A stretch of 20,000 nt of DNA from an uncultured virus (IMG/VR IMGVR_UViG_2660238032_000003) (lineage: Duplodnaviria; Heunggongvirae; Uroviricota; Caudoviricetes). Shown here piece after piece: positions 1-11,726 of this stretch (position 1 is the stretch's first letter; every line of letters begins with the position of its first letter). A program made the translations under genes and the position numbers. Where the stretch lies: the IMG/VR virus record IMGVR_UViG_2660238032_000003; one strand, 5' to 3'. The notes under the pieces are model-generated. The model was not told where the DNA came from. It saw only the letters and a list, made by a program, of their open reading frames with translations, and did no database searches.

Positions 1-9
1 TCTAGCCAT
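1..9 (-). CDS. 5' end of a gene leaving the window (MAR...), probably terminase small subunit
   Basis: ATG GCT AGA at 9..1 with purine-rich GAGGTGGTG upstream. Position downstream of the late regulator and late promoter is where terS normally lies. Only 3 codons visible. Confidence 0.35.
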
Positions 10-50
10 ATCTCACTATCACCACCTCACTCTGTTCAAATTATCATCTT

Positions 51-221
51 TCATATGCTGTAAACTGTTACTAAATAAAAATAAGCTAAACATTCAACTA
101 CTATACTTAAAATAGCTGATGCAAAGCTTATTAATTTATCGTTATTATTTTTTATTTTCTTGGCACATTCAATTATATTTAATATATGTGTTATTGCTAC
201 TCCTATAACAAGTAGTGTCAT
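51..221 (-). CDS. small two-TM membrane protein
   Basis: Two hydrophobic stretches (MTLLVIGVAITHILNII; LISFASAILSIVVECLAYFYLVTVYSI). Start moved to ATG 221 (or TTG 230) because 232..390 holds another ORF. Confidence 0.55.
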   Translation of the reverse strand: MTLLVIGVAITHILNIIECAKKIKNNNDKLISFASAILSIVVECLAYFYLVTVYSI

Positions 222-231
222 TATATACAAG

Positions 232-390
232 CTATGACCTTTTTTCTTTTTTAGATTTATATAATTCTCTTTTAATAATTCTATTACGTTCTTTATACGT
301 TTCACACTTACTTTTCATTTCTTTTACTGTTTTATATTTCTTACAGCCAAAACAGCATTTCATACATGGATTTTCTAATGGAGCTATCAT
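232..390 (-). CDS. 52-aa Cys-containing basic hypothetical protein (not in ORF track)
   Basis: Manual translation MIAPLENPCMKCCFGCKKYKTVKEMKSKCETYKERNRIIKRELYKSKKEKRS; strong SD AAAGGAG upstream. Confidence 0.65.
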   Translation of the reverse strand: MIAPLENPCMKCCFGCKKYKTVKEMKSKCETYKERNRIIKRELYKSKKEKRS

Positions 391-391
391 T

Positions 392-559
392 CTATCTTCT
401 CCTTTCACTATTCTTAAAACATTCTTTCCACCCTTTGTATTGATCCAATGTTACTTCTACTTTATTACAATTCTTATATCTATCACATGCTTCATTTCCA
501 ACTTTGCATAAGCATCTTAATTCTTTCCCTTTCCATCTTGTATAGCATTTTACTTTCAT
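392..559 (-). CDS. 55-aa Cys-rich hypothetical protein
   Basis: MKVKCYTRWKGKELRCLCK...; SD GAGGTG precedes ATG 559. The track start at 610 lies inside a terminator. Confidence 0.65.
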   Translation of the reverse strand: MKVKCYTRWKGKELRCLCKVGNEACDRYKNCNKVEVTLDQYKGWKECFKNSERRR

Positions 560-591
560 TGTTCTCACCTCTTTCTGTTTCGTTGAATAAT

Positions 592-618
592 AAAAAGCGC
601 CTAAATTCATAGGTGCTT
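592..618 (-). terminator. intrinsic terminator
   Basis: AAGCACCTA-TGAATT-TAGGCGCTT hairpin (one mismatch) followed by a T tract, after the 645..938 gene. Confidence 0.6.
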
Positions 619-644
619 CAATAAATAATTCTATATACTTTTTA

Positions 645-938
645 TTACAATAATACTACATCTATTTTATTTCCTTTTTTATCTGTAATGCCATTACTGC
701 TAACCTTTACTTTTAATAGTCTTTCAATTGCAGGTATTTCCATGTCCAATAACTTGTAAAACAATCCTAACAGCTTACTTGATACTTCATAATCACTTAA
801 CTCTTTAGTATCTACATATCTAATATACACACCGCCATGATAACTAATATAAAAATCAATACCATCCAATCCATATTCAATATGGTATTGTATCTTTTCT
901 CCTGCTTTAAATTTAGTTCTACTTCTTTTAACACTCAT
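645..938 (-). CDS. hypothetical protein (97 aa)
   Basis: ORF track; SD AAGGGGAG upstream. Confidence 0.7.
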   Translation of the reverse strand: MSVKRSRTKFKAGEKIQYHIEYGLDGIDFYISYHGGVYIRYVDTKELSDYEVSSKLLGLFYKLLDMEIPAIERLLKVKVSSNGITDKKGNKIDVVLL

Positions 939-1013
939 AATATGCTCCCCTTTGTATAACTAATTGTACAAAAAGAACTCTATTTCTAGAATTACTTTCC
1001 ATTATAATATATT

Positions 1014-1250
1014 CTATTTTTTTAGATATTCTATAAACTTTTCATTATCTAATTCTATATCTTCTAGTTGATTTATTATATTTTTATCTATTATTTCTAA
1101 ATTTCCTTCTATTTCTTTTATTTTCTCTATATCCTTTATATTATCTATACAAAATTTTAATACTTTTTTATATTCGTTTTTTTGTACTGTAATTAATTCT
1201 TTATATTGTTTATTAGTTAAATCAATTATTTCTATCTCCTTATTATTCAT
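1014..1250 (-). CDS. hypothetical acidic protein (78 aa)
   Basis: ORF track; SD AAGGAG upstream. Confidence 0.65.
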   Translation of the reverse strand: MNNKEIEIIDLTNKQYKELITVQKNEYKKVLKFCIDNIKDIEKIKEIEGNLEIIDKNIINQLEDIELDNEKFIEYLKK

Positions 1251-1288
1251 AATACTTCTCCTTTTTCTATAATATTTGCTATTATAAA

Positions 1289-1783
1289 CTAAATATCTAT
1301 GTGACCATCATCAATAAGTGCAATATCAATATATTTTATTTTCCGCAACTCATCATTTTTATCTGATTTTATTTTTATACATTCTTCATTATTATCAATT
1401 AATCTTCCAATAATATGTTCATGATCTTCTGGCGAACAACCCCCATTTGTAGGTTTCAGAAACATTTCTATTTTATCACCTTTTTTATGTTTATTAATCA
1501 TTTCTTTATATTCAAGAACATCATGTATTTCCCAAAATCTACTACAATTCTTACGTTCTTTATAATGTAATGCACTTAAATTAGTTCTTAACGAACCATC
1601 AATATCATAAGTATCATCTAATATATAAAGATTATCATCACCAGTTTCCTTTTTATAAATTTCCAGTGCTTTATTATAACTTTCTCTTTCTGTTTTTTCA
1701 AAAGTGGTTAAAATTTTATTTTCCCAGCAGAATATCATGTGCTTCTCTACTTCCGGATTTTCATGGAATGGGAGAAATGCCAT
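1289..1783 (-). CDS. hypothetical protein (164 aa)
   Basis: ORF track; SD AAAGGA; possible own promoter TTTACA-N16-TATTAT near 1855-1882. Confidence 0.7.
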   Translation of the reverse strand: MAFLPFHENPEVEKHMIFCWENKILTTFEKTERESYNKALEIYKKETGDDNLYILDDTYDIDGSLRTNLSALHYKERKNCSRFWEIHDVLEYKEMINKHKKGDKIEMFLKPTNGGCSPEDHEHIIGRLIDNNEECIKIKSDKNDELRKIKYIDIALIDDGHIDI

Positions 1784-1894
1784 ATCTTATCATTCCTTTC
1801 AACTTTATATAATTACATTACTTATATTCATAAATTCAATTATTTAATTCATAATAATATAATTATATAAAATAATGTAAATTCCTCCTAAATA

Positions 1895-1967
1895 TTAAAA
1901 ATACTCCATACAACCTACAAGACATCCAAGTATAAACTTAGATATTCGGTTAATACAGAGTATTTTA
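1895..1967 (-). terminator. long G.U-rich stem-loop followed by a T run (terminator or structured RNA)
   Basis: AAAATACTCTGTATTAACC pairs with GGTTGTATGGAGTATTTT; inner stem ATATCTAAGT/ACTTGGATGT. Wobbles work on the minus-strand RNA. Confidence 0.5.
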
Positions 1968-2062
1968 ACTATTGTATAAAAGGGTAATGAGAATTTATGA
2001 GAAAATAACCAAGGTATCTTATAAAACAAGGGGGGAGTTTTACTGGATACCTCTTACTTATT

Positions 2063-2116
2063 ATTATAAAGGTTATTTTTAATTATTTTTCTCAAATTTT
2101 TCTCATTTTCTTATCA
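2063..2116 (-). promoter_or_regulatory. putative late promoter with activator direct repeats
   Basis: TGATAAGAAAA-TGAGAAAAATT-TGAGAAAAAT (11-bp period) upstream of a perfect TATAAT (2063-2068) with no good -35. This layout is typical of RinA/ArpU-activated late promoters. Confidence 0.55.
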
Positions 2117-2848
2117 TTTATTTTCTTCATTCAATTTTTTTCTTTCTTCTATATTTGTAAATAGACTTTCAAATAAATACCCTAAAAAACCAATTATAGT
2201 AGCAGCTGTAGCTAATTTATTCATATCATTTAAAAATATAATTCCTGAGATTATTCCACTAAAAGCTATTATTAATCTTAACCATTGTCTTAATCCTTTT
2301 GGCCAATCAATTAACTTTTTTCTCTTGTTGCTTCTTTTATTCATAGTATTTATTGATTTTTTATTATTAATCATCAAATCTTCTTTCATTAATTTGGCTA
2401 ACATATTGCATTGTATAACATATTGATCTTTACTTTGTTGAAATAATCTTTTTTTACTAAATGTAAATTGACTATACTTCGATAACATACTATATATGTT
2501 AAATATTTCATCAGTTGCATACAATCTAATTTTCACTGAAACATTCATACTTTTTTGATTAATATTATCTAATTCATGTTGATATTTATCATGTGCAATA
2601 TCATAATCCCAATCTGAATAATCACAATATTTTCTTATATTTAAAAGTACTTCTAACGCTTCTAAATATGTTTCTTCTTTGTTTTTCATAATCTTTTCTT
2701 GTTTTTCAAAGTTTTTTTCCATGTTGAATTTGTTTTTTTCTATTTTATTATTATATATGTTTTGAATAAATCCACCCAATGTACCAATTAATATACCTGA
2801 TATTGTAAATATCCCAGTATATATTGCAATTTGTAATTTTGTATCCAT
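2114..2848 (-). CDS. moron membrane protein (1 N-terminal and 2 C-terminal TM helices)
   Basis: Hydrophobic N-terminus and two C-terminal hydrophobic segments; SD AAGGAGG; own promoter. Confidence 0.75.
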   Translation of the reverse strand: MDTKLQIAIYTGIFTISGILIGTLGGFIQNIYNNKIEKNKFNMEKNFEKQEKIMKNKEETYLEALEVLLNIRKYCDYSDWDYDIAHDKYQHELDNINQKSMNVSVKIRLYATDEIFNIYSMLSKYSQFTFSKKRLFQQSKDQYVIQCNMLAKLMKEDLMINNKKSINTMNKRSNKRKKLIDWPKGLRQWLRLIIAFSGIISGIIFLNDMNKLATAATIIGFLGYLFESLFTNIEERKKLNEENK

Positions 2849-2869
2849 CTAATTCCTCCTTCAGATGTA

Positions 2870-2898
2870 ATATTACCAAATAGTACAATTTAAGACAA
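2870..2898 (-). promoter_or_regulatory. sigma-A-type promoter of the moron
   Basis: TTGTCT-N17-TAATAT with a TG extension. Confidence 0.6.
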
Positions 2899-2902
2899 TA
2901 TA

Positions 2903-2930
2903 AGAACACCCATATTTCTACAGGTGTTCC
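2903..2930 (-). terminator. terminator hairpin after late regulator
   Basis: GGAACACCTGTA-GAAA-TATGGGTGTTCT, 12-bp stem with GNRA loop; weak U tail. Confidence 0.6.
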
Positions 2931-2934
2931 AAAA

Positions 2935-3456
2935 TTATTTATACATCCACATAGAATCAGCAATATTTTCAACTAATTCTTCTCTGTGCCTATAACACGT
3001 AGGAATGCTTAAATTAAGTTGCATTGCTATATATGGAATGTTTCTATTATCTCCATAGAAATACTCTATAAATCTTTTATCCTCTTCTCTTAAGCTTTCT
3101 ATATTAGTATCCATAATTCTTATAAAAGATTGCATTTCCATTATCTTAGATTCTGTTTTAATCTTTTGCTTTATCTTCTCTACTTTTCTTTGTTCTAATT
3201 TAGTAACCTCATTTTCCATTTGTTTTTCCATATAGGAGCTTCCACTAATACTAGCTTGTACTCTTTCTCCACATCCTGCTCCTGGTGGCATTGTATCTAA
3301 GCTTATATAATTATGAACATTTCTCATTTGATTATCTATAGCTTTAATTTGTTCCTCTAATGATTCAACTTTTCTATATTTTTTATTAATTTGTTTTTTA
3401 TATCTATAGTAACGGTAAAGCTGTCCTTCTGTTTTTTGAAATAGTTCTTTTTCCAT
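2935..3456 (-). CDS. RinA/ArpU-family late transcriptional regulator (sigma70 region-4-like HTH)
   Basis: N-terminal TEGQLYRYY, coiled coil, C-terminal EEDKRFIEYFY...IPYIAMQLNLSIPTCYRHREELV HTH; located at the end of the early region. Confidence 0.8.
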   Translation of the reverse strand: MEKELFQKTEGQLYRYYRYKKQINKKYRKVESLEEQIKAIDNQMRNVHNYISLDTMPPGAGCGERVQASISGSSYMEKQMENEVTKLEQRKVEKIKQKIKTESKIMEMQSFIRIMDTNIESLREEDKRFIEYFYGDNRNIPYIAMQLNLSIPTCYRHREELVENIADSMWMYK

Positions 3457-3473
3457 AGGCTAGTCCTCCTTTT

Positions 3474-4115
3474 TTATACCACAATTTTAATCATTAATTT
3501 TTCTAATTCTTCTAATATAGGTTTTTCCTCAAGAGGTTCTCCAAAATCTATATAATATCCAAACTTAAAATCTTCTTTTAATGTCTCAAATAATGCTTTA
3601 TCTGGATTCAATCTTATCTTCTTTAAAGTTTGTTTATTTGTATCTGTTAACATTATGTGAAATGGATTTTTATAATTATATGTTATATACAATAACCAAT
3701 ATAATTTTTGTAAATGAGCTAATTCTTTACCATTAAAATCTTTTTCTAATAATTTTATTCTACTTCTGCTTTCACCTATTATCACTTTCATAAACTCAAT
3801 TCTAAGTTCTTTAAATAACTTATCTCTATTACTCCAAAGATATTTTCTTATTGTTTCTAATATAAGATTACAATCATCATCTGCTAATGGGGCATACATC
3901 ATTTCAAACATTCTTAAGCTACCTTTTTTAACTTCTTTAAGCATTAATCTTATATCTTTAATGTTTATATCATTTCCATATTCATCTTTAGTTTGAGTGC
4001 TCCTAAACTTTCCCCAAAACATTTCTTCTTTAGTAGGTAAAACAAATTCCAAGTAATCTTTATCACTTTCTTCTGTATCCATTCCCCAGAAATGACTTCC
4101 TAATAAATATTTCAT
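3474..4115 (-). CDS. DNA polymerase beta-superfamily nucleotidyltransferase (RlaP/Nuc-transf-like)
   Basis: N-terminal LGS-x3-G-x5-SDKD signature (GS plus DxD) followed by a helical domain. Confidence 0.7.
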   Translation of the reverse strand: MKYLLGSHFWGMDTEESDKDYLEFVLPTKEEMFWGKFRSTQTKDEYGNDINIKDIRLMLKEVKKGSLRMFEMMYAPLADDDCNLILETIRKYLWSNRDKLFKELRIEFMKVIIGESRSRIKLLEKDFNGKELAHLQKLYWLLYITYNYKNPFHIMLTDTNKQTLKKIRLNPDKALFETLKEDFKFGYYIDFGEPLEEKPILEELEKLMIKIVV

Positions 4116-4423
4116 TAATATCTCCCCTCACTAATATCATCTTTGGACTTATTCCATACCATTCTTGAGCTTACATAAACATTATCTATCATCTTAAGTA
4201 TTTGTCCTACTCTATCTTTAAGTGGTGGATTCTTTGGTATTCCTTTACCTTCATTGCTTCTTACTTCATATAAAATGCTTGACCATCTATCATATACACC
4301 TAGTGCTTTTTTATGAAGATTATAGGCCCTTGCATATTCATTATCTTTCAATGTATCCATTTCATTAATAAGATCTGTGAAAGAATTTAAATCTTCTGTT
4401 GTTATAAAAGGACTATTTAACAT
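4115..4423 (-). CDS. hypothetical helical protein (102 aa)
   Basis: ORF track; SD AAGGAGG; stop overlaps the next start. Confidence 0.75.
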   Translation of the reverse strand: MLNSPFITTEDLNSFTDLINEMDTLKDNEYARAYNLHKKALGVYDRWSSILYEVRSNEGKGIPKNPPLKDRVGQILKMIDNVYVSSRMVWNKSKDDISEGRY

Positions 4424-4497
4424 CTTATCCTCCTTTTTGAATTACTAAGGCATGTATACTTGCAATAGAGCTTGTACCTTGCCTTGTAATTCTGTTT

Positions 4498-4998
4498 TTA
4501 TTTGCAAGTTTTAATCTTGTGTATCTTTAAAAAGCTTTTTAACTCATATCTATATCTAACCTTTTTCTTATTTCCTATAATTTCAATTCCATTTGCTTTA
4601 CACCATCCTAAAGGTATTGACCTTCTATCAGCAGTATCTATATATAACTTTAATTCTTTAGCTTTTATTGCATATGTTTTTTCATAATCTCTAAAGTTAA
4701 ATATAAAATATGCTTTAATCTTTGGATGCTGGATATTGGACATTTCTTCTATTTGGTTACTTCTAATACAGTTGAAAGGAATGCTAGCACCTGCATGAGA
4801 TTTGAGTTCCAATAATACTAAATAATCATTAGTCATTACCTGGAAGTCACATATATTATGAGCTTGAAATCTTACATTCTCATTTTTAGTTCCGCCAAAA
4901 TTTGCTGTACCATCTTTAAATCTATATATCCAACAATCTTCAGGAACTGACTTTTTAAAATCTTCTTCAAATAGCTTTCCCGGATTCTTCTTTACCAT
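4498..4998 (-). CDS. recU: Holliday junction resolvase RecU
   Basis: N-x-G-x-x-FE, CDF...LLELKS and I-x-x-NQ motifs of RecU. ATG 4998 with SD AGGCGG preferred over 5025. Confidence 0.8.
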   Translation of the reverse strand: MVKKNPGKLFEEDFKKSVPEDCWIYRFKDGTANFGGTKNENVRFQAHNICDFQVMTNDYLVLLELKSHAGASIPFNCIRSNQIEEMSNIQHPKIKAYFIFNFRDYEKTYAIKAKELKLYIDTADRRSIPLGWCKANGIEIIGNKKKVRYRYELKSFLKIHKIKTCK

Positions 4999-5141
4999 TT
5001 GTACCCGCCTTTCTTTACACTCCATCTACGTTTTTTCTTTTCAGTCTGATATTTTTGATAAGCAAGAAATTCATTTTCTTTACGCTCTCTTCTTTTAGCA
5101 ATATCTCTTACTGTTTTAGCAGCTAGTTCTTTTGCAGTCAT
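4992..5141 (-). CDS. 49-aa basic hypothetical protein (not in ORF track)
   Basis: MTAKELAAKTVRDIAKRRERKENEFLAYQKYQTEKKKRRWSVKKGGYKW; SD AGGAG; fills the gap and overlaps the recU start. Confidence 0.65.
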   Translation of the reverse strand: MTAKELAAKTVRDIAKRRERKENEFLAYQKYQTEKKKRRWSVKKGGYKW

Positions 5142-5152
5142 AATATCAACTC

Positions 5153-5917
5153 CTACATAGCTATTTGATTATTTACTAATGTTATTTCATCTTTAAGAAC
5201 AAATGGTACTTCATATTTATCTACTATTTCCTTGGCTATCTCTAATTGACTCCTTTTTATTGCTTTATAGCTATTAACCTCAAACTGTCTTTTTATTTCT
5301 CTTTGTATATCTCCAAATACTCTAGCTCTTAATGATTTATCATAATAAGCTTTTCTGTTATATCCTCCTAAACATTTAACTGCCTTCTTTTTGACTGCTT
5401 TTTGAAGTTCTTCGCAGTCTATATTGAATAATGGCATATTGTCTTTTAGATCCTTTACTTCATTTTCTAGCTTTTGTTGCTTTCCATCTATCATAAAGAT
5501 AGCTTGAAGTTCTTTAGACATTTTAGGAATTTCTGATCTCATGTTGAAATATCCATCAACTAATTTTTCATATTGCTCCCATGCAAGATCATCTTCTAGT
5601 ATTTTTAAAAGTTTTGAATATCCTCTTTCTGATAATAGATAAATATTATTTGCATTCCCGTATTGAGCATTAGTTAATCCCATTTCTAAAACAAGTCTTT
5701 TTGAAAGACCTGTTTTTAAATCTATAATATCCACATTGTCTTTAAATCTTTTTCTATTATTATTTATTAATTCATTTACCTTTTTAACTTCTCTCCTGTG
5801 TATTTCAGCAATTTCTTTAGCTAACATTGCTTTTTTACTTTCTCCAAATCCACCTTCAATATCATGAAAAGTCATTCCCTCAACAGTTATTAATCCTTTT
5901 ATCATTAAATTATTCAT
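5153..5917 (-). CDS. ORF6N/ORF6C-domain phage antirepressor-like DNA-binding protein
   Basis: AMLAKEIAEIH...VNELINNNRKRF and IYLLSERGYSKLLKIL (ORF6N); LRARVFGDIQREIKRQFEVNSYKAIKR (ORF6C). Confidence 0.85.
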   Translation of the reverse strand: MNNLMIKGLITVEGMTFHDIEGGFGESKKAMLAKEIAEIHRREVKKVNELINNNRKRFKDNVDIIDLKTGLSKRLVLEMGLTNAQYGNANNIYLLSERGYSKLLKILEDDLAWEQYEKLVDGYFNMRSEIPKMSKELQAIFMIDGKQQKLENEVKDLKDNMPLFNIDCEELQKAVKKKAVKCLGGYNRKAYYDKSLRARVFGDIQREIKRQFEVNSYKAIKRSQLEIAKEIVDKYEVPFVLKDEITLVNNQIAM

Positions 5918-6005
5918 TTTTAATCCTCCTTAAATTATCACTTGATTATCATATGAGAATATAAAGCTAGTATCGTAACATTTTTATACTCTCACATTTA
6001 GTTTT

Positions 6006-7037
6006 TTACTTTTCTATATAGCTCATAACATTTTTAATTATCATGTTCACACTTCCATCACCGTTAGGAACTATATCGAATTTATCCTGGTCATTATAGG
6101 CTACGTTTGATATATATAAATCTATTTCTCTGTCTATATTAAGTCTTACTTTTTTAACTTTCTTCTCAACATAAGTCTTGTCTACTCCAAATTCTTCTTC
6201 ACAACTTCCAGCCATATACACTTTAAAATTGTCTGCTGCTCCTGGTTCTTTTAATACTTCTTTTGCAACTTCTTCTATATTTATAATGTCCTCTTCTATA
6301 ACTTTATTTTTAAAAGAATCTCTTATTTTTTGTTGATCCTCTGCACTTTGCACATTTTTTCTTATCCAAGTCTCAGAATTATTTATAAAACTTTTTGTAT
6401 TATCTCTCTCATTAGTGATAAGTGTTGAGTATAAATAATCTGCTACGAAATAATTAATTCTTAATTCTGCATCTTCCTTAGTTCTCTTCTTCTTATCTAA
6501 GACATAAAGATTAAACAGATTATCTTCTCGATATGGTTTTATAAAAGCAGCCTTTTCTATTTTTTGACTACTCCCTGGTAGGCCTGCAATCTGTGGTACT
6601 ATTCCTACCCCTATTTTTTCATCTATAAATTGAATTTCATGAGTAAAGTTCTTTACATAATCCAATTTTAGTATTCCAATCATTGGTCCTTGATCTGTAG
6701 TTAAAGAGACTATAATCAAATCACATGAATCTATGCTTTCATCCATTTGCATGATTGCAAACATTTGCTTTGCTAAGCTTTTAGATAATCCTATAAAATC
6801 ATCATCAATTCCATTTAAATAATCCTTAACTGTTTCTTTAACTAAACTAGTGCCTTGTTTGAATTTAGCATATTTTAACTCATCATCTTTTAAGCACTTT
6901 TCTATATGCTTATATAAGAACTTGTACACTTCCTCAGTTAATTCTAAAGTAAATTCATTTAAAACTGGTTCTGCTGCATTTCTATCCAAAACATGAATTA
7001 CAGCTTGATTTATATTAATGTCATTTATATATTCCAT
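6006..7037 (-). CDS. nucleoid-associated protein (NdpA/YejK-like, 37 kDa)
   Basis: N-terminal IHVLD, IGILKLDY and GLP...KIEKAAFI motifs, and size typical of this family. Confidence 0.7.
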   Translation of the reverse strand: MEYINDININQAVIHVLDRNAAEPVLNEFTLELTEEVYKFLYKHIEKCLKDDELKYAKFKQGTSLVKETVKDYLNGIDDDFIGLSKSLAKQMFAIMQMDESIDSCDLIIVSLTTDQGPMIGILKLDYVKNFTHEIQFIDEKIGVGIVPQIAGLPGSSQKIEKAAFIKPYREDNLFNLYVLDKKKRTKEDAELRINYFVADYLYSTLITNERDNTKSFINNSETWIRKNVQSAEDQQKIRDSFKNKVIEEDIINIEEVAKEVLKEPGAADNFKVYMAGSCEEEFGVDKTYVEKKVKKVRLNIDREIDLYISNVAYNDQDKFDIVPNGDGSVNMIIKNVMSYIEK

Positions 7038-7056
7038 TGTTTTTCCTCCTAAATCA

Positions 7057-8064
7057 TTAAACTACTAATCTTCTATATTCATTTTTCAAATTTTCTTGTG
7101 AAAGTTGTGCATAAATCTGAGTTGTAGTTGGAGTAGTATGTCCTAATATACCTTGTACTCCTTCAATCCTCATTCCACTATTTAATAATCTAGTCGCCTG
7201 AGTCCTTCTAAACTTATGCGCATGAACCCTTTCTGTTACATTCGTCCTATTCTTTATCTTTTTAATAATTAACTGTAGAGCTCTAGTTCCTATTACTTGA
7301 TATGGTGCTTTTTGTGATATAAACAAATAGTCTGATTCTCCTTTTCTTGTATTTATATACTGTTCAATATGCAATTTAGCTTTAGTTGAAAAATAAACTA
7401 TTCTTTCTTTACTTCCTTTTCCTGTTACTTTTATGCTCTGCTCGGACCAGTTTATATCCTCTAACTTAATGTTATCTATTTCTGATATTCTACAAGCTGT
7501 ACTATCTAATAATTCAAACAATGCTTTTTCTCGTTCTGTTTTGCATCCTTCTCTTAATTTTTCAAGATTCTCTGCTTTGTAAGGTTGTTGAATTATTCTT
7601 GGCACCTTTGTTTGTTTTAACTTATAAGCTGGATTGTTAAAAATATATTCCTCTGATTGCAACCATCCGAAAAAGTTCTTTAAATAAGTGATATATCCAT
7701 TAACAGTACTTGCTTTCTTGCCTTTACCCAATAGAGCTAAGAACATTCTTAAATCCATTGTGTTTATAGTAGAACATGGTTTAGTAAAATACTGATCTAA
7801 CTTATTAAGAAACAGTCTGTAATTATATAATGTCTTATTGCTTAAACCTTCTAATTTCTTACAAGCAAGATATAGCTGAGCCTTTTCTTCTATATCGCTG
7901 CAAACTAAATCTGTACACTTACTTTGTACTTCGTAGTTATACAAAGTCTCATCTATAGTTCTCTTAACTTCTAGTTGCATATCTAATTTCTGTTCTAAAA
8001 AAGGTAATAACAATGTTAATTTTCCCACTAATTTAATGCTTACTTCTTCGTTTAGGTTGCTCAT
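7057..8064 (-). CDS. Xer-like tyrosine recombinase, intact
   Basis: SAM-like N-domain (GLSNKTLYNY); catalytic R (TACRISE), K (GKGSKER), HxxR (HKFRR), H (LGH), Y (TTQIY). Confidence 0.92.
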   Translation of the reverse strand: MSNLNEEVSIKLVGKLTLLLPFLEQKLDMQLEVKRTIDETLYNYEVQSKCTDLVCSDIEEKAQLYLACKKLEGLSNKTLYNYRLFLNKLDQYFTKPCSTINTMDLRMFLALLGKGKKASTVNGYITYLKNFFGWLQSEEYIFNNPAYKLKQTKVPRIIQQPYKAENLEKLREGCKTEREKALFELLDSTACRISEIDNIKLEDINWSEQSIKVTGKGSKERIVYFSTKAKLHIEQYINTRKGESDYLFISQKAPYQVIGTRALQLIIKKIKNRTNVTERVHAHKFRRTQATRLLNSGMRIEGVQGILGHTTPTTTQIYAQLSQENLKNEYRRLVV

Positions 8065-8100
8065 TATTTATTCCTCCCCTTGTGAAATTGATTATTTATT

Positions 8101-8144
8101 GAGAATAGATACTCAAGACAATAGTGTAGTAAGCATCTACTCCC
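8101..8144 (-). promoter_or_regulatory. G.U-rich hairpin in the recombinase leader
   Basis: GGGAGTAGATGCTTA pairs with TGAGTATCTATTCTC (15 bp including G.U pairs). Confidence 0.5.
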
Positions 8145-8164
8145 TATTCATTTGCTATATTACT

Positions 8165-8470
8165 TTATTCATATTTTTCTTCTGAAATTTCCGCTGCCAT
8201 AAATTTATCAATATCAAAATATCTTCCTGTTGTAATAAATGGTGGTTTAATTCCTATATAATTAAATCTTCTAAATTCACATAAGCTAATAATGTCATCA
8301 ATAATATATATACTTGACTTATTTTCTTTAAGATACTTGCTAAAATCATCATAATTAACTAAAATATAATCTTTGTTATATTCATTTTTATTATTAACTT
8401 TAGACATGATTACAACATATTCATTGCTATCAAAGTCTACCTTTACTACTTTTCCAATAAAATCAACCAT
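8165..8470 (-). CDS. hypothetical protein (101 aa), array gene
   Basis: ORF track; SD AGGAGAGG. Confidence 0.7.
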   Translation of the reverse strand: MVDFIGKVVKVDFDSNEYVVIMSKVNNKNEYNKDYILVNYDDFSKYLKENKSSIYIIDDIISLCEFRRFNYIGIKPPFITTGRYFDIDKFMAAEISEEKYE

Positions 8471-8511
8471 TTCTACCTCTCCTTTTCTACATCCTGTATT
8501 AGTATTGTGAA

Positions 8512-8676
8512 TTACTTTTCATACCAATCACAATTTTCCATAATCTTTTCTAGTTCTAATCTTGGCTTATCTATATCTAACATTTGACATACTGATTCAC
8601 AAATACTTGTCAAATCACATTCTAAACAACACTTTCCTGCTCCTGGACATTCACATTCAAAATTACATTTACTCAT
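8512..8676 (-). CDS. 54-aa protein with 9 Cys (not in ORF track)
   Basis: MSKCNFECECPGAGKCCLECDLTSICESVCQMLDIDKPRLELEKIMENCDWYEK; SD AAAGGGTG. Confidence 0.7.
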   Translation of the reverse strand: MSKCNFECECPGAGKCCLECDLTSICESVCQMLDIDKPRLELEKIMENCDWYEK

Positions 8677-8713
8677 TTATAGCACCCTTTCATATTTTAG
8701 TATTGTGAAGTTT

Positions 8714-9535
8714 CTACAATGCACATTCACAAGGTAGAAAACTCATTTGACCATCTATTTCTGGTAATGATTTATTTACCATTGACCAAAATCTTTGACT
8801 TCCTATTTTTTCTGTTGGAACTATACCTTTACACCTCATAGATGCAAATTTAGGTTCTAACTCTTCTAAAAATAAATCTTTTAAAATACTGTAACCAATA
8901 GCCTTTTCGGTTTCTTTGGCTTCTTCCCACAACTTAGGATATAAACAATAAGTTAAATACCATTGTTGCTTACCTGCCTTTAAGCAGCCTTTACAATTAG
9001 CATGTCTAAATAGTTCATATACATTAGGTCTTTTAATTCCTAATTCCTCTGTAGATTGTATTGTTCTATTCCAAAAAGCCAATGGAAAATCTGTTTTATA
9101 TCCTTGGTTTATCATAACTCCAATTCTTCTTTGGATTCTGTTAGTTTCTTTCTTATCAAATCCATATATTAAAGTTATATCTTCTCTTACTTCTCCTGGA
9201 GCTACTGGGTAATTATCTTTTAACCACTTATGAAATGGCTTAGTTTTTAAGTTATAAGTACAAAGTACTGGACCATTACCAAACTTAAATCCTCCAAGCT
9301 CTTTACATACCCTTAATGGTGTTTTATTTTCCCAACCTTCCATATTTGCATAAGTTATATCTATTCCTAAATATTTTGCAACTTCATTTTTAAATCTTTT
9401 TATGTCATTGTCCTCTACTTCCTCACTAATATTGTGATTAAGTAGTATTACATTTTCTTTGCCAACTTTTCTAACACATTCTATAGCACATAAGGCTGAA
9501 GAATGTCCTCCTGAAAAACATACAATATATTTCAT
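8714..9535 (-). CDS. PAPS-reductase-like PP-loop protein
   Basis: VCFSGGHSS PP-loop, CTYNLKTKP, HANCKGC and terminal PCEC Cys motifs. Start at ATG 9535 (MKYIV) or 9550. Confidence 0.8.
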   Translation of the reverse strand: MKYIVCFSGGHSSALCAIECVRKVGKENVILLNHNISEEVEDNDIKRFKNEVAKYLGIDITYANMEGWENKTPLRVCKELGGFKFGNGPVLCTYNLKTKPFHKWLKDNYPVAPGEVREDITLIYGFDKKETNRIQRRIGVMINQGYKTDFPLAFWNRTIQSTEELGIKRPNVYELFRHANCKGCLKAGKQQWYLTYCLYPKLWEEAKETEKAIGYSILKDLFLEELEPKFASMRCKGIVPTEKIGSQRFWSMVNKSLPEIDGQMSFLPCECAL

Positions 9536-9680
9536 AACTACCACTAACATAGTTAATTCCTTGCTAGTGGAAGCAATTTAGCACTCCTTGGGGAGCATCC
9601 GTATTACTTTACATATAAACGTCAATAAACACTTATTATATAACCTGGTCTACCAGGATTTAGTTATGTTTTACTCCTTT
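9533..9680 (-). ncRNA. candidate multi-stem cis-regulatory RNA leader
   Basis: Closing stem CATAACTA/TAGTTATG contains the ATG. Internal hairpins CCTGG-TAGA-CCAGG, TGCTCC-CCAA-GGAGTG and CCACTAGCA/TGTTAGTGG. Confidence 0.6.
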
Positions 9681-9692
9681 CTTATTAAGCAT
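9660..9692 (-). CDS. 10-aa leader uORF MLNKKGVKHN
   Basis: SD GAGGT upstream of ATG 9692; stop lies at the 5' strand of the leader's closing stem. Confidence 0.4.
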   Translation of the reverse strand: MLNKKGVKHN

Positions 9693-9734
9693 ATTTTTAC
9701 CTCACTTTTATTCTGACTTTCTACATATTGTGAA

Positions 9735-9923
9735 TTAAAAATTATTTAATTCTTCTAACTTTATTCTACTGAACATTTCAGTTTCCACATCTTGTATTAC
9801 GAATTGTTTTTCTTTTAAATCAAAGCCTATCTTTATATTGCAAGTTCCCATTGTTGCTTTTAATGCATTTAGAAAAAAGTTTATGCGTTCTTTAGCTTCT
9901 AATTGATCATTATTTTTACTCAT
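9735..9923 (-). CDS. hypothetical protein (62 aa)
   Basis: ORF track; SD GGGGGAG; overlaps the upstream stop. Confidence 0.7.
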   Translation of the reverse strand: MSKNNDQLEAKERINFFLNALKATMGTCNIKIGFDLKEKQFVIQDVETEMFSRIKLEELNNF

Positions 9924-10143
9924 TGCCTTCTCCCCCTAGATCTATATTTATACGTTCCGAATCTTCAGCATATATTTGTTCTACTTCTCTTTCTCCATAT
10001 AAATCCCACATGCTTTCATCTTGTCCTAAATACTCATTATCTTCTGAATAATCTTCTTGTACAAAAGTTCTAGTGTCCAAAAAATCTAAGTTTATATCAA
10101 CCATTTGTGAACTCAAAACACATCTTAAGTCTTTTAACTTCAA
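9916..10143 (-). CDS. hypothetical acidic protein (75 aa, TTG start)
   Basis: ORF track; SD AAGGA upstream. Confidence 0.65.
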   Translation of the reverse strand: MKLKDLRCVLSSQMVDINLDFLDTRTFVQEDYSEDNEYLGQDESMWDLYGEREVEQIYAEDSERINIDLGGEGNE

Positions 10144-10164
10144 CTTCTTTCATCCTTCCTGACT

Positions 10165-10617
10165 TTATATTTCTCCTGTTAATTTAACTCCAGCCATTTC
10201 TCCATTATCAGCTTCAAAACAAAGCATAATCCCATTACTCAAATGTTTTCCTGTTATAGTTAAACCATTTTCTAAGGCTTGGTTTATTAATTCATTTAAT
10301 TTAACTTTATAATAAACTGGATCATCTTTTCTTAATCCCATATTCTTCATCCTTTCCTTAACCAAATCTATATTGAAATTTTCTTCTATAGATAAAATCA
10401 TATAGCCTTCTTCTAAACCATATTGACCACCTTGTAAAATATAAGTTATTCTTACTGGTAAGCTATTTCCTGTATATATTTGACCATCAAATTCATTTAA
10501 TATTATAAAATCTCCTACTTTATAATCTCTATCATTCTTCCTTATTTCAAATTTCTTTTTCCCTTCTACTACAGCTTTAAAATATTGTGGTAGAATTTTT
10601 AAATAATGAATGTCCAT
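10165..10617 (-). CDS. DUF3850/ASCH (PUA-like) domain protein with C-terminal extension
   Basis: H-x-LKILPQYF-x-AV-x-x-G-x-KKFEIRKNDRDYKVGD signature. Confidence 0.85.
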   Translation of the reverse strand: MDIHYLKILPQYFKAVVEGKKKFEIRKNDRDYKVGDFIILNEFDGQIYTGNSLPVRITYILQGGQYGLEEGYMILSIEENFNIDLVKERMKNMGLRKDDPVYYKVKLNELINQALENGLTITGKHLSNGIMLCFEADNGEMAGVKLTGEI

Positions 10618-10648
10618 AAGATACTCCTTTAAAATTCACATTATCTGA

Positions 10649-10945
10649 CTACTTATAGTCCCATATAGATTCTCCATACTTTTTTCTAATAAAATTACAA
10701 GGCACAAAATCATTGTTTTCAAAATCACTCCCATATGCTATTACACATTGGTTACAATTAATCTGTGCGTCACAAGCTTCAATGGAATCTGTTAAATCTT
10801 CTTCTTTTACAATCTCTATTGCTTTATTCCAACAATCAATATGAGCTGTAGTAAACTTTTCTCTAAGTCTACCGCAATGAGCATCTAATGGATGCAACTT
10901 TTTATGGCATAAATCACATTCCATATATTCAACTTTATGAATCAT
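10649..10945 (-). CDS. Cys/His-rich hypothetical protein (98 aa)
   Basis: MIHKVEYMECDLCHKK...CNQC. ATG 10945 follows SD AAAGGA; the track start at 10993 overlaps the upstream gene. Confidence 0.7.
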   Translation of the reverse strand: MIHKVEYMECDLCHKKLHPLDAHCGRLREKFTTAHIDCWNKAIEIVKEEDLTDSIEACDAQINCNQCVIAYGSDFENNDFVPCNFIRKKYGESIWDYK

Positions 10946-10974
10946 ATTTTTTCGTCCTTTCTGACTATTGTGTA

Positions 10975-11289
10975 CTATATTGCTACCATACAAATTCCTT
11001 TATAACTATTTTGAAAGTGCCTAAATGAAAAGGAAAAATCAATGTTTTTGTATTCTTCTTTCAATTCTCTTAGTACAATTTCAGATATTTCATTTTCAAA
11101 GCCATATGTTACATTTCCATAAAAATCAACTGTAGTTGTTGTTTTTCCTTTTTCGATATTATCTTCAAATCTTTTAATACAAAGTTTTTTAAAATTATTA
11201 ACTTCTTTTCGTATTGTTTTATTTCTTATTCTTTCAGCCTTCTCTTTATAAGAAAAATCACTTTTAGATTTCAAAAAACCAAATAACAT
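10975..11289 (-). CDS. hypothetical protein (104 aa)
   Basis: ORF track; SD AAGGAG. Confidence 0.7.
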   Translation of the reverse strand: MLFGFLKSKSDFSYKEKAERIRNKTIRKEVNNFKKLCIKRFEDNIEKGKTTTTVDFYGNVTYGFENEISEIVLRELKEEYKNIDFSFSFRHFQNSYKGICMVAI

Positions 11290-11315
11290 TTATTTTCTCC
11301 TTTTTCTGACTTATA

Positions 11316-11726
11316 TTAAAATGGCATATCTCCATCATCCACTGGAGTTATATCTTCCTCAAAGCTCATTTCATCAAATGGATTACTTGATGATAAATTA
11401 TTATTTTTGCTTCCGCTCATAAATTCAACATTTTCAACTACTGCTTCAAGTGTATAAACTGTTGTTCCATTCTTGTCGTATTTACCACTTTGCATATGAG
11501 CTTCTATTTGTATTCCTATCCCCTTACTGAAATGTTCTGCTATAAACTCTGCTGTTTTACCAAACGCAATTATTGGAATAAAATCACTTTCATACTTTTG
11601 AGTATTTTTATCCTTAAATCTTCTTTTAGCTGCTACTGTATTTTTTAATACTGCTGTTCCTGTACCTTCTGTAAATTTTAAATCTATATCTCTTACTAGA
11701 TTTCCAGTAATGATTAATTTATTCAT
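11316..11726 (-). CDS. ssb: single-stranded DNA-binding protein
   Basis: MNKLIITGNLVRD, DFIPIIAFGKTAE and acidic DDGDMPF tail. Confidence 0.95.
   Translation of the reverse strand: MNKLIITGNLVRDIDLKFTEGTGTAVLKNTVAAKRRFKDKNTQKYESDFIPIIAFGKTAEFIAEHFSKGIGIQIEAHMQSGKYDKNGTTVYTLEAVVENVEFMSGSKNNNLSSSNPFDEMSFEEDITPVDDGDMPF

Follow-up and report, generated by a model that had tools for sequence, protein, structure and literature searches.

Background

Phage genomes are mosaics, and the conserved linkers once proposed to guide the exchange of phage modules have, to our knowledge, rarely been found. Integrons comprise the integrase IntI, an attI site and Pc promoter beside the divergent integrase gene at the head of the array, and attC repeats of 57–141 bp; attC arrays without an integrase use an enzyme supplied elsewhere. 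In the Gin/Cin/Min systems and the Rci shufflons, a dedicated recombinase inverts tail-fibre or pilin segments between inverted sites within one genome. The PeSL regulatory cassettes of T4-type phages are reportedly also a subject of Comeau et al. in 2014 (PMC4122927). According to Arbiol et al. in 2010, each cassette pairs a sigma-70 promoter with a terminator stem-loop and recombines by homology, and mini-circles were shown (PMC2839356). The pdif/dif modules of Acinetobacter plasmids are reported to carry 28-bp sites that mimic the host dif, with neighbouring sites in alternating orientation; the host XerC/XerD act on them, and the modules are reshuffled among replicons (PMC13141974, PMC6449649, PMC9947245).

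The locus described here lies in a window of 20,000 nucleotides (i.e., the whole stretch of viral DNA that was analysed). Like the PeSLs, it has a short, conserved motif repeated between the small, non-essential genes of a hyperplastic region, and the motif bounds insertions, deletions and replacements between close relatives, albeit with only 43 of 164 end-points at sites in the present case. Unlike the PeSLs, the element is without promoter or terminator signal, being a 24-bp, 9-6-9 quasi-palindrome fused to a ribosome-binding site (RBS) and occurring with three spacer classes; it is also known from contigs alone, whereas mini-circles are described for the PeSLs. The pdif modules are reported to be similar in that small accessory gene modules lie between many Xer-type sites (two arms and a 6-bp spacer); here, in contrast, the sites are 24 bp long, have a single orientation and belong to a phage that encodes a Xer-like enzyme close by. 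Pattern searches for a host dif site in three Clostridium genomes gave no convincing candidate, and the consulted parts of the text and supplements of a published dif prediction contain no Clostridium site.

The sequence-only reading proposed an integron-like cassette array. As in integrons, co-oriented and mostly promoter-less single genes are separated by imperfect inverted repeats and adjoin a tyrosine recombinase gene, and arrays also exist without the enzyme. However, the recombinase is not of the IntI type, and its gene is co-oriented with the array and stands at the downstream end; the sites are 24 bp long without attC hairpins, gene order is collinear, and neither attI nor a Pc promoter was seen in the array. 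Overall, the integron proposal found only partial support.

Genes of the block

Between ssb and the recombinase gene there were eight ORFs, all co-oriented, which fell into eight different clusters (Table 1); these had been described as about ten unrelated genes, which overstated their number. Gene content varied strongly among relatives, with many singleton ORFs. The gene maps showed that the NA37-type gene comes after the recombinase gene in most early-region relatives. Other functions encoded by the phage included RecT, an SbcC-like ATPase and an MBL-fold nuclease.

Table 1. Features of the accessory block and its borders (window coordinates)
Feature	Position	Strand	Details
NA37-type nucleoid-associated protein gene	6006..7037	-	Pfam NA37 2.7e-60
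Predicted Xer-like tyrosine recombinase, 335 aa	7057..8064	-	Pfam Phage_integrase + SAM-like N domain
Hairpin in recombinase gene leader	8101..8144	-	-20.9 kcal/mol, z -5.2
Eight accessory ORFs	8165..11289	-	most without family; most replaced by other genes in relatives
Accessory ORFs without listed family	10975-11289, 10649-10945, 9916-10143, 9735-9923, 8165-8470	-	
DUF3850/ASCH accessory ORF	10165-10617	-	
PAPS-reductase-like accessory ORF	8714-9550	-	
Cys-rich accessory ORF	8512-8676	-	
ssb	11316..11726	-	upstream border of block; Pfam SSB 9.7e-23
Junction element after ssb	11296..11319	-	left arm degenerate, overlaps stop; spacer GTCAGA; right arm = RBS of next gene
Junction element between 104-aa and 98/114-aa ORFs	10951..10974	-	TACACAATA-GTCAGA-AAGGACGAA; 25.5 bits
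Junction element	10635..10658	-	degenerate left arm over stop codon; spacer GTCAGA; good right arm TAATGTGAA
Partial junction element	10149..10172	-	AAATATAAA-GTCAGG-AAGGATGAA
Junction element	9711..9734	-	TTCACAATA-TGTAGA-AAGTCAGAA; 21.9 bits
Junction element	8686..8709	-	TTCACAATA-CTAAAA-TATGAAAGG; left arm exact, right arm weak
Junction element	8488..8511	-	TTCACAATA-CTAATA-CAGGATGTA; 22.1 bits

The recombinase is predicted to be a Xer-like enzyme with intact catalytic residues, as the sequence-only reading had held: R192, H283, R286, H309 and Y318 were invariant, and K216/K219 conserved, among 15 homologues. Its PDB matches were XerC-like, XerA and XerD, and its NCBIfam scores for XerA (211.2 bits, cut-off 220), XerC (177.9, cut-off 335) and XerD (162.3, cut-off 330) all fell below the curated cut-offs. 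It had no match to an arm-binding domain family. An IntI-type integrase was rejected, given that the integron integrase model of NCBIfam scored 67.1 bits against a cut-off of 265, over a C-terminal stretch only, and the Xer models were best; a role as the integration integrase of the phage was rejected from the gene maps. Relatives have two other sequence versions of the leader hairpin with a similar fold (z -3.8 and -4.0), and this hairpin-bearing leader suggests that the recombinase gene is regulated separately.

The junction element

All seven sites listed by the sequence-only reading were present at gene junctions on the minus (coding) strand. Relatives gave a 24-bp consensus, T(T/A)CRCAATA-N6-(T/A)A(T/G)(T/G)RYGAA, laid out as a 9-6-9 inverted repeat. 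The motif is real, with imperfect dyad symmetry around the 6-bp spacer. The 9-bp box follows directly 3' of the stop codon, with a gap of 0–3 nt. The right arm can be an inverted copy of the box but is more commonly the RBS of the next gene, ending in YGAA; the overlap of right arm and RBS noted before is the usual state. Most right arms are degenerate, perfect 9-6-9 copies being found in relatives. When 29 junction sites were picked by the left arm alone, leaving the right arm unused in selection, a spacer of 6 nt gave the best fit of right arm to inverted consensus (a mean of 4.72/9, against 2.1–3.7 at 15 other spacings). Spacers fell into three classes (GTCAGA, TGTAGA-like and CTAATA-like), the order of which was fixed (87 concordant and 10 discordant site pairs). 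All sites were in direct orientation on the coding strand, matches on the reverse strand being the same sites read as palindromes. The junction gaps, of 12–41 nt, held a 24-bp element.

Placement, and not a total count above chance, was the non-random feature of the two words that make up the element. The box (T[TA]C[AG]CAATA) occurred four times in the window, always in the coding strand and no more than 30 nt past a stop codon, a zone that covers 2.8% of strand-positions. AGTCAGR occurred five times, in every case on the coding strand at a junction between 9712 and 11311; four copies lay inside the same zone and the fifth overlapped the stop codon itself. Total counts were near chance, at 15 against 13.6 expected for the box with one mismatch, and 5 against 3.2 for AGTCAGR. 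A weight matrix built from relatives, whose training set included the sites of the window, produced three matches of at least 18 bits in the window against none in 60 Markov simulations. No match lay beyond 8488-11319, which bears out the earlier remark that the motif is absent outside the block, and in whole records the sites were likewise restricted to the accessory block. Two 24-nt degenerate patterns matched only 10 times in 2.9 million viral contigs, and all 10 matches belonged to this phage group.

Neither promoter-like nor terminator-like signals were detected at the elements on the coding strand. An RNA helix is unsupported, because the one variable outer pair showed no covariation (G-C 28, G-T 19, A-C 16, A-T 9) and the inner arm pairs were mostly A-G. 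The AGAAAGG... part of the motif is ribosome-binding sequence and was enriched at every junction; the box itself is not.

Breakpoints and gene order among relatives

In a group of temperate Clostridium phages, the element delimits exchangeable accessory genes of the early region. Where relatives shared only one flank, similarity stopped inside the element. There were eight left-only and seven right-only pairs across 76 sites; as read from the printed pairs, the left arm was identical at 8 or more of 9 positions in 6/8 left-shared pairs, and the right arm at 9/9 in 5/7 right-shared pairs. The left arm goes with the upstream gene and the right arm with the downstream gene, while the spacer is common to both. 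The shared stretch at exchanges was about 15–24 nt.

Individual elements in the window conformed to this pattern. At 11296..11319, similarity to L030 and L015 stopped at 11312/11313, and contigs from three runs joined or broke at 11314/11315. A contig of run X1 joined 10971 to the end of ssb, and was therefore without the 104-aa gene. Similarity to L009 and L014 across the 75-aa gene started at 10160, within 10149..10172; at 8686..8709, similarity to L008 stopped at 8698, in the spacer; and at 8488..8511, similarity to L028 stopped at 8504, while contigs of runs X6 and X7 ended at 8494. The genome G001 matched the window from 1 to 9737 and was unrelated upstream of 9711..9734; over 9737-6801 (2937 nt) the two were 99.97% identical, with the sole mismatch in the left arm of that element. 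Locus L024 had the upstream side of G001 and differed after the spacer. One site underwent two exchanges and shows almost no divergence nearby, which suggests a high rate.

The expectation that gains and losses break at the spacer was thus borne out where gene replacements ended inside the element, but it did not describe the arrays as a whole: 43/164 similarity end-points fell at sites, 68/164 at junctions without a site and 53/164 elsewhere. Since so many end-points lay at site-less junctions or elsewhere, general recombination is active in the region anyway. Enrichment of breakpoints at sites was weak either way (overall OR 2.3, p = 0.055; gap-matched, 10/22 against 21/63, p = 0.32). Shared segments were collinear in 66/68 locus pairs, the exceptions being one real change of order and one local repeat.

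Sites with and without the recombinase gene

The recombinase gene was missing or truncated in relatives through several different configurations. Thirteen recombinase-less loci were found through another gene, and nine of these carried 1–6 sites each, i.e., as often as loci with the gene. A recombinase orthologue was present in none of five whole records, and one record that was 91% complete had no tyrosine recombinase domain at all; Pfam PF00589 was absent from G012, and G012 and G006 contained no tyrosine recombinase. The dependence of the sites on the recombinase, on which the sequence-only reading turned, therefore fails, since the sites are equally present in related phages without the gene.

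Among loci found via the recombinase, strong sites lay no more than about 4 kb upstream of its gene, in two genome contexts (early-region and tail/lysis-region). Two arrays with a truncated recombinase belonged to genomes that also had an intact copy, judging by contig names (L024 with L007, and L038 with L010). For six genomes whose arrays lack the gene, the 35 loci of a close-relative search included no viral contig from that genome with a recombinase.

Explanations of the element

The reading tentatively preferred, while falling short of probable, is that the junction element is conserved and acts as a place of crossing-over for which the neighbouring recombinase is not needed. Related phages that share a cell, either as co-resident prophages or through superinfection, would cross over at the short shared elements, through homology-dependent recombination by the phage's own RecT-type system or that of the host. 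One gene slot would be replaced per exchange and order kept, much as with the promoter/stem-loop cassettes of T4-type phages. From its dyad symmetry, a dimeric DNA-binding protein may also read the element and keep its sequence conserved, while the Xer-like recombinase would be one more gene of the region, gained and lost and not required for the sites to persist. It counts against homology that 15–24 nt is short for homologous recombination, that the two exchanges at one site point to a high rate, that strong sites stand close upstream of the recombinase gene in two contexts, and that the 9-6-9 dyad and discrete spacer classes, which equal the core layout of a simple tyrosine recombinase, are left unexplained; no candidate protein binding the element was found.

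That layout is what the next alternative takes as its starting point, which we regard as a serious possibility though a doubtful one: the elements would be core sites of a simple Xer-type tyrosine recombinase, and slot-wise exchange would occur between same-spacer sites of two genomes, crossovers at two sites of different class replacing the genes between them (a natural heterospecific-site cassette exchange). This is a narrowed form of the sequence-only proposal without integron-type capture. The inverted arms around an asymmetric spacer, the fit peaking exactly at 6 nt, the uniformly direct sites with three spacer classes in fixed order, and the partition of left arm, common spacer and right arm between neighbouring genes all agree with it, as do an intact Xer-like enzyme without match to the arm-binding family, the strong sites upstream of its gene in both contexts, and the leader suggestive of separate regulation. 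The encoded enzyme would act where present, and otherwise a copy in trans (from a co-resident prophage) or a related host enzyme; the truncated-recombinase arrays in genomes with an intact copy fit this, but the equal frequency of sites without the gene, the whole records and genomes that lack it and the six genomes without a recombinase contig do not. Moreover, most right arms are ribosome-binding sites and not inverted boxes, an active enzyme would delete the four direct GTCAGR sites of the window, and only a minority of end-points are at sites. Perfect palindrome copies in over 100 other viral contigs mostly lacked a recombinase homologue: of 80 loci retrieved together with their flanks, only 9 had one.

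Conservation without the recombinase, the position 0–3 nt after the stop and running into an extended RBS, the dyad symmetry and the restriction to the coding strand would also suit an element that is chiefly regulatory, the mosaic borders being incidental. It might serve a dimeric DNA-binding protein of phage or host as operator or roadblock, or be an RNA processing or translation signal for each cistron; the stoperators of cluster A mycobacteriophages are comparable regulatory sites, lying between genes and oriented with transcription. This is improbable, however, given the lack of a candidate binding protein, of promoter- or terminator-like signals at the sites and of covariation to support an RNA helix; discrete conserved spacers would be unexpected in an operator, and the in-frame copies at mosaic joints of tail-fibre genes (described below) would go unexplained. 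Finally, a fortuitous similarity of A/T-rich intergenic spacers and ribosome-binding sites, with which the near-chance word counts and the RBS sequence at every junction accord, is scarcely credible, being refuted by placement at junctions of one block, by the confinement of all 10 pattern matches to the group and by the 6-nt spacer peak.

A defined 24-bp element with the layout of a recombinase core site is thus found at module borders in one phage group, tied to very recent gene replacements. If no recombinase acts on it, it would join the T4 PeSLs as a second, clean case of a repeated junction element that channels shuffling, and it would point to a further DNA-binding factor. If one does, it would represent a new site-specific trade of accessory genes, and possibly of receptor-binding genes, between phages, and a natural parallel to the engineered exchange of cassettes at heterospecific sites.

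Copies in tail-fibre genes

A broader form of cassette exchange, which we consider rather unlikely, would have clostridial and other Firmicutes phages use one family of palindromic 24-bp core sites (box TTCGCAAT / ATTGCGAA), whose spacers are heterospecific, to bracket both early accessory genes and receptor-binding tail-fibre ends, Xer-type recombinases, phage-borne or in trans, swapping the modules by two same-spacer crossovers. Were the cassette-exchange reading true, it would provide a site-specific route to mosaicism and host-range change distinct from both integrons and homologous recombination. More than 100 viral contigs had the same palindrome at the flanks of variable tail-fibre modules, its copies lying in frame within the gene at mosaic joints. 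As with Gin/Cin/Min and Rci, in-frame sites join a constant N-terminal part to alternative C-terminal parts; unlike those systems, most carriers of the palindrome have no homologous recombinase, and two direct sites with different spacers flank a single module, the alternatives to which sit in other genomes.

Early region and its relatives

All genes of the window are on the minus strand and make up the early region of a temperate phage with low G+C content. Its relatives came from Clostridium genomes, and the nearest record, G001, matched window 1-9737. A near-identity search of the phage collection with the window gave no match, and a distant search of the same collection gave short gene-level matches only. 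Eight ORFs were counted between ssb and the recombinase, rather than the 'about ten' genes of the sequence-only reading.

The Rfam search returned no RNA family at the gene junctions, its sole match being a DUF3800-VIII RNA (51.5 bits; gathering score 40.2). An unusually long gap of 184 nt, which contains a mini-ORF of 10 codons and a CCTGGT..ACCAGG hairpin, may be a regulatory leader of the PAPS-reductase-like gene that it precedes. A similar hairpin was present in a relative (L011, about 7993-8187), ahead of a 292-aa gene.

Features of the window and their order
Feature	Position	Strand	Remarks
Genes on the ssb side, in order		minus	SbcC-like ATPase, RecT, MBL-fold hydrolase, replisome organiser, MazG, two HNH endonucleases, ssb
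ssb	11316-11726	minus	after the two HNH endonuclease genes
Genes after ssb, in order		minus	eight small ORFs, tyrosine recombinase (7057-8064), NA37 nucleoid-associated protein, anti-repressor, RecU
Block with elements at its junctions	8488-11319		4 box and 5 AGTCAGR copies, coding strand
184-nt gap	9551-9734	minus	before PAPS-reductase-like gene
Recombinase leader hairpin	8101-8144	minus	
DUF3800-VIII RNA	1900-1964	minus	Rfam match

A 24-bp element at the gene junctions

Every site quoted in the sequence-only reading was present in the window and, in line with its remark that the motif was not seen at junctions outside one block, all copies of the left arm, or box, T[TA]C[AG]CAATA, and of AGTCAGR lay at junctions of that block. 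In 35 loci collected via the recombinase, for which genes were mapped and junctions printed, the box recurred on the coding strand beside unrelated genes; by eye, a stop triplet lay no more than 9 nt ahead of 22 of the 25 coding-strand copies in 36 sequences. The full element spans 24 bp and consists of T(T/A)CRCAATA, a 6-bp spacer and (T/A)A(T/G)(T/G)RYGAA. Its best copies were perfect 9-6-9 inverted repeats (e.g., in loci L017, L030 and L014 and record G008). When 29 junction sites were selected on the left arm alone, the match of the right arm to the inverted box scored highest when the spacer was 6 nt long (4.72 of 9; other spacings gave 2.1-3.7).

A weight matrix was built from sites found by a short regular expression in the loci and grew from 23 to 146 sites in four rounds, such that weak matches may include drift. 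At 12 bits or more there were 114 coding-strand and 41 opposite-strand matches, many of the latter being coding-strand sites read again as palindromes. Two degenerate 24-nt patterns occurred in 6 and 4 places of the viral collection, all of them contigs of this phage group, and no published description of the element was found. The spacers of 92 distinct sites included 19 of GTCAGA (class G), about 30 resembling TGTAGA (class T) and about 25 resembling CTAATA (class C). Towards the recombinase the classes were ordered G, T, C, with 87 site pairs concordant and 10 discordant, although these pairs are not independent because the arrays are related.

Two 7-mers, AGGGTTC and GGGTTCT, were enriched about 15-fold within 40 nt after stop codons at the junctions of loci L007-L041, and represent a junction motif distinct from the 24-bp element. 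The motif TTCTTTGAAAATTGAATA or its complement recurred near elements in several loci (L020:8590-8640; L032:7200-7330 and 8400-8470), and also in two chromosomal contigs (L179, L182).

Elements as borders of mosaicism

Record G001 and the window matched as far as 9734-9737, where the stop codon and box lie, and were unrelated beyond; across window 9737-6801 a single mismatch was seen, located in the left arm. Locus L024 was G001-like upstream and diverged after the spacer. Similarity to other relatives ended at 11312/11313, 10160, 8698 and 8504, in each case within or beside an element. Among 76 sites, 8 pairs had the left flank only in common and 7 the right flank only; the left arm tended to track the upstream gene and the right arm the downstream gene, while the spacer was common to both. 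In a contig from public sequencing run X1, the end of ssb was joined to 10971, and therefore the 104-aa gene was missing; a complete element was present after ssb. Contigs from other public runs broke at 8474/8494 and 11314/11315. The public runs together consisted of contigs, none with more than 0.24 of the sampled words, and parts left uncovered carry no meaning. Four draft contigs from three genomes (L007:1, L024:1, L012:1 and L018:1) started 61-62 nt ahead of an element, which would fit an assembly graph branching at the spacer end between two copies with a common upstream side.

Most breakpoints lay away from the sites, which speaks against a recombinase-driven array: of 164 distinct similarity end-points in the arrays, 43 were at sites, 68 at junctions lacking one and 53 in other positions. 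Junctions with a site were end-points in 14 of 31 cases, compared with 58 of 217 for the rest (odds ratio 2.3, p = 0.055), and in 10 of 22 cases compared with 21 of 63 when junctions were matched for gap length (p = 0.32); with crudely called ORFs and related loci, the test has little power. Common segments of the arrays were collinear, with one real change of order in 68 locus pairs, which likewise speaks against such an array.

The recombinase and its absence

Judged by its sequence, the recombinase is Xer-like; profile scores were 211 bits for XerA (cut-off 220), 178 for XerC and 162 for XerD, and PDB matches were XerC-like, XerA and XerD. Its description as intact was upheld by the conservation of R192, K216/219, H283, R286, H309 and Y318 in 15 homologues. 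It is not the integrase for integration. A second, larger tyrosine recombinase gene was seen in three relatives (L011, L031 and L037), on the opposite strand and beside repressor-like genes. The homologue was placed after tail or lysis genes in some relatives and in Clostridium phage phiCp-D (41% identity). In phiCp-D (L221), which also encodes ParM, TTCGTAAAT-GAAAAA-GAATACGAA lies at 6925-6950, between a tail gene and the homologue; it has the outer TTCG..CGAA dyad of the element and scored below the matrix threshold.

Another set of 23 loci was collected via a different gene, encoding a 173-aa regulator. The recombinase was absent from 13 of these, of which nine carried 1-6 sites of at least 16 bits and the remaining four extended for under 3 kb upstream. 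The sites therefore persist without the gene, contrary to the proposal of a recombinase-driven array. No recombinase orthologue was found in any of five recombinase-less whole records searched, three of them 90-97% complete, and Pfam PF00589 was not found in G012, a record 91% complete with its array present. The gene was absent in differing configurations and truncated in L024, L038/L039 and L027.

A strong hairpin in the recombinase leader was also present in two relatives (L009:9925-9964; L020:9920-9963). Single-sequence folds showed its stem to be kept in three different sequence versions (z -3.8 to -5.2), with A/U-rich sequence 3' of it, and it may be an attenuator or binding site. A consensus fold of 15 leaders gave no structure because leaderless sequences were mixed in. 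Locus L196 retained a remnant of the hairpin though its recombinase gene was gone. In L008, L011, L013, L016, L022, L027-L029, L031 and L040, the recombinase is followed some 2-3 kb downstream by another tyrosine recombinase-like ORF, a short one of 180-264 aa, which is part of a conserved set of four genes preceding those for packaging.

A palindrome search of three Clostridium genomes gave no convincing candidate for host dif; its matches were sites within prophages, a hairpin belonging to a terminator, and unrelated upstream sites. A dif-core pattern gave no more matches than its control.

Interpretation of the element

Plain counts of box and AGTCAGR were near chance, such that the signal lies in their placement; the zone up to 30 nt after stop codons comprises 2.8% of strand-positions in the window, and chance resemblance is scarcely credible. 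A mainly regulatory site is considered unlikely. The right arm of most copies consists of A/G-rich ribosome-binding sequence and keeps the terminal YGAA. Promoter or terminator signals were sought at the sites and none was found, and the promoter or terminator reading was dropped. An RNA-hairpin reading was also dropped, as base-pair covariation was absent.

Slot-wise, site-specific exchange by an Xer-type enzyme, in cis or in trans, is a possibility of some weight, in that the element resembles a simple tyrosine-recombinase core site in its layout, its orientation, its spacer classes and its neighbourhood. However, good sites are kept without the recombinase gene, arrays are collinear and site-less end-points are numerous. 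These same observations fit the reading tentatively preferred here, that the element is quite possibly a conserved sequence where general recombination crosses over. Among described systems, PeSLs and Acinetobacter dif modules come closest.

Related palindromes in tail-fibre genes

A search of the viral collection gave 117 stretches with the perfect palindrome TTCGCAAT-N8-ATTGCGAA, and most copies were in frame within apparent coding sequence in the contexts printed. Where the carrying gene was checked, six of eight had tail-fibre, minor-tail or host-range family matches. Several contigs carried, at a distance of 1.6-2.2 kb, a further copy whose spacer differed; in the cases inspected (L078, L088) this copy was intergenic. 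Two recombinase-bearing loci, L017 and L036, had the same two-copy layout. The flanks recombined freely, 103 contexts comprising 65 left and 59 right classes in 90 combinations, with one left class paired with 10 right classes. A recombinase homologue (34-84% identity) occurred in only 9 of 80 palindrome loci fetched with flanks. Three complete palindrome-bearing records were searched and none contained a real orthologue of the recombinase of the window, one having no tyrosine recombinase whatever.

An argument from codon usage, that in-gene sites are under selection at the nucleotide level, was set aside and is not evidence, being biased because these sites were found with the matrix; GCG, TCG and ACG, which form the box, account for 5.2% of Ala, 2.4% of Ser and 3.9% of Thr codons, respectively. 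In viral contigs L052-L168, the in-frame palindrome in tail-fibre genes sits at a mosaic joint. Further copies were located at L017:5832 and 7049, L036:6809 and 7958, and G008:C18:8082 and 9247.
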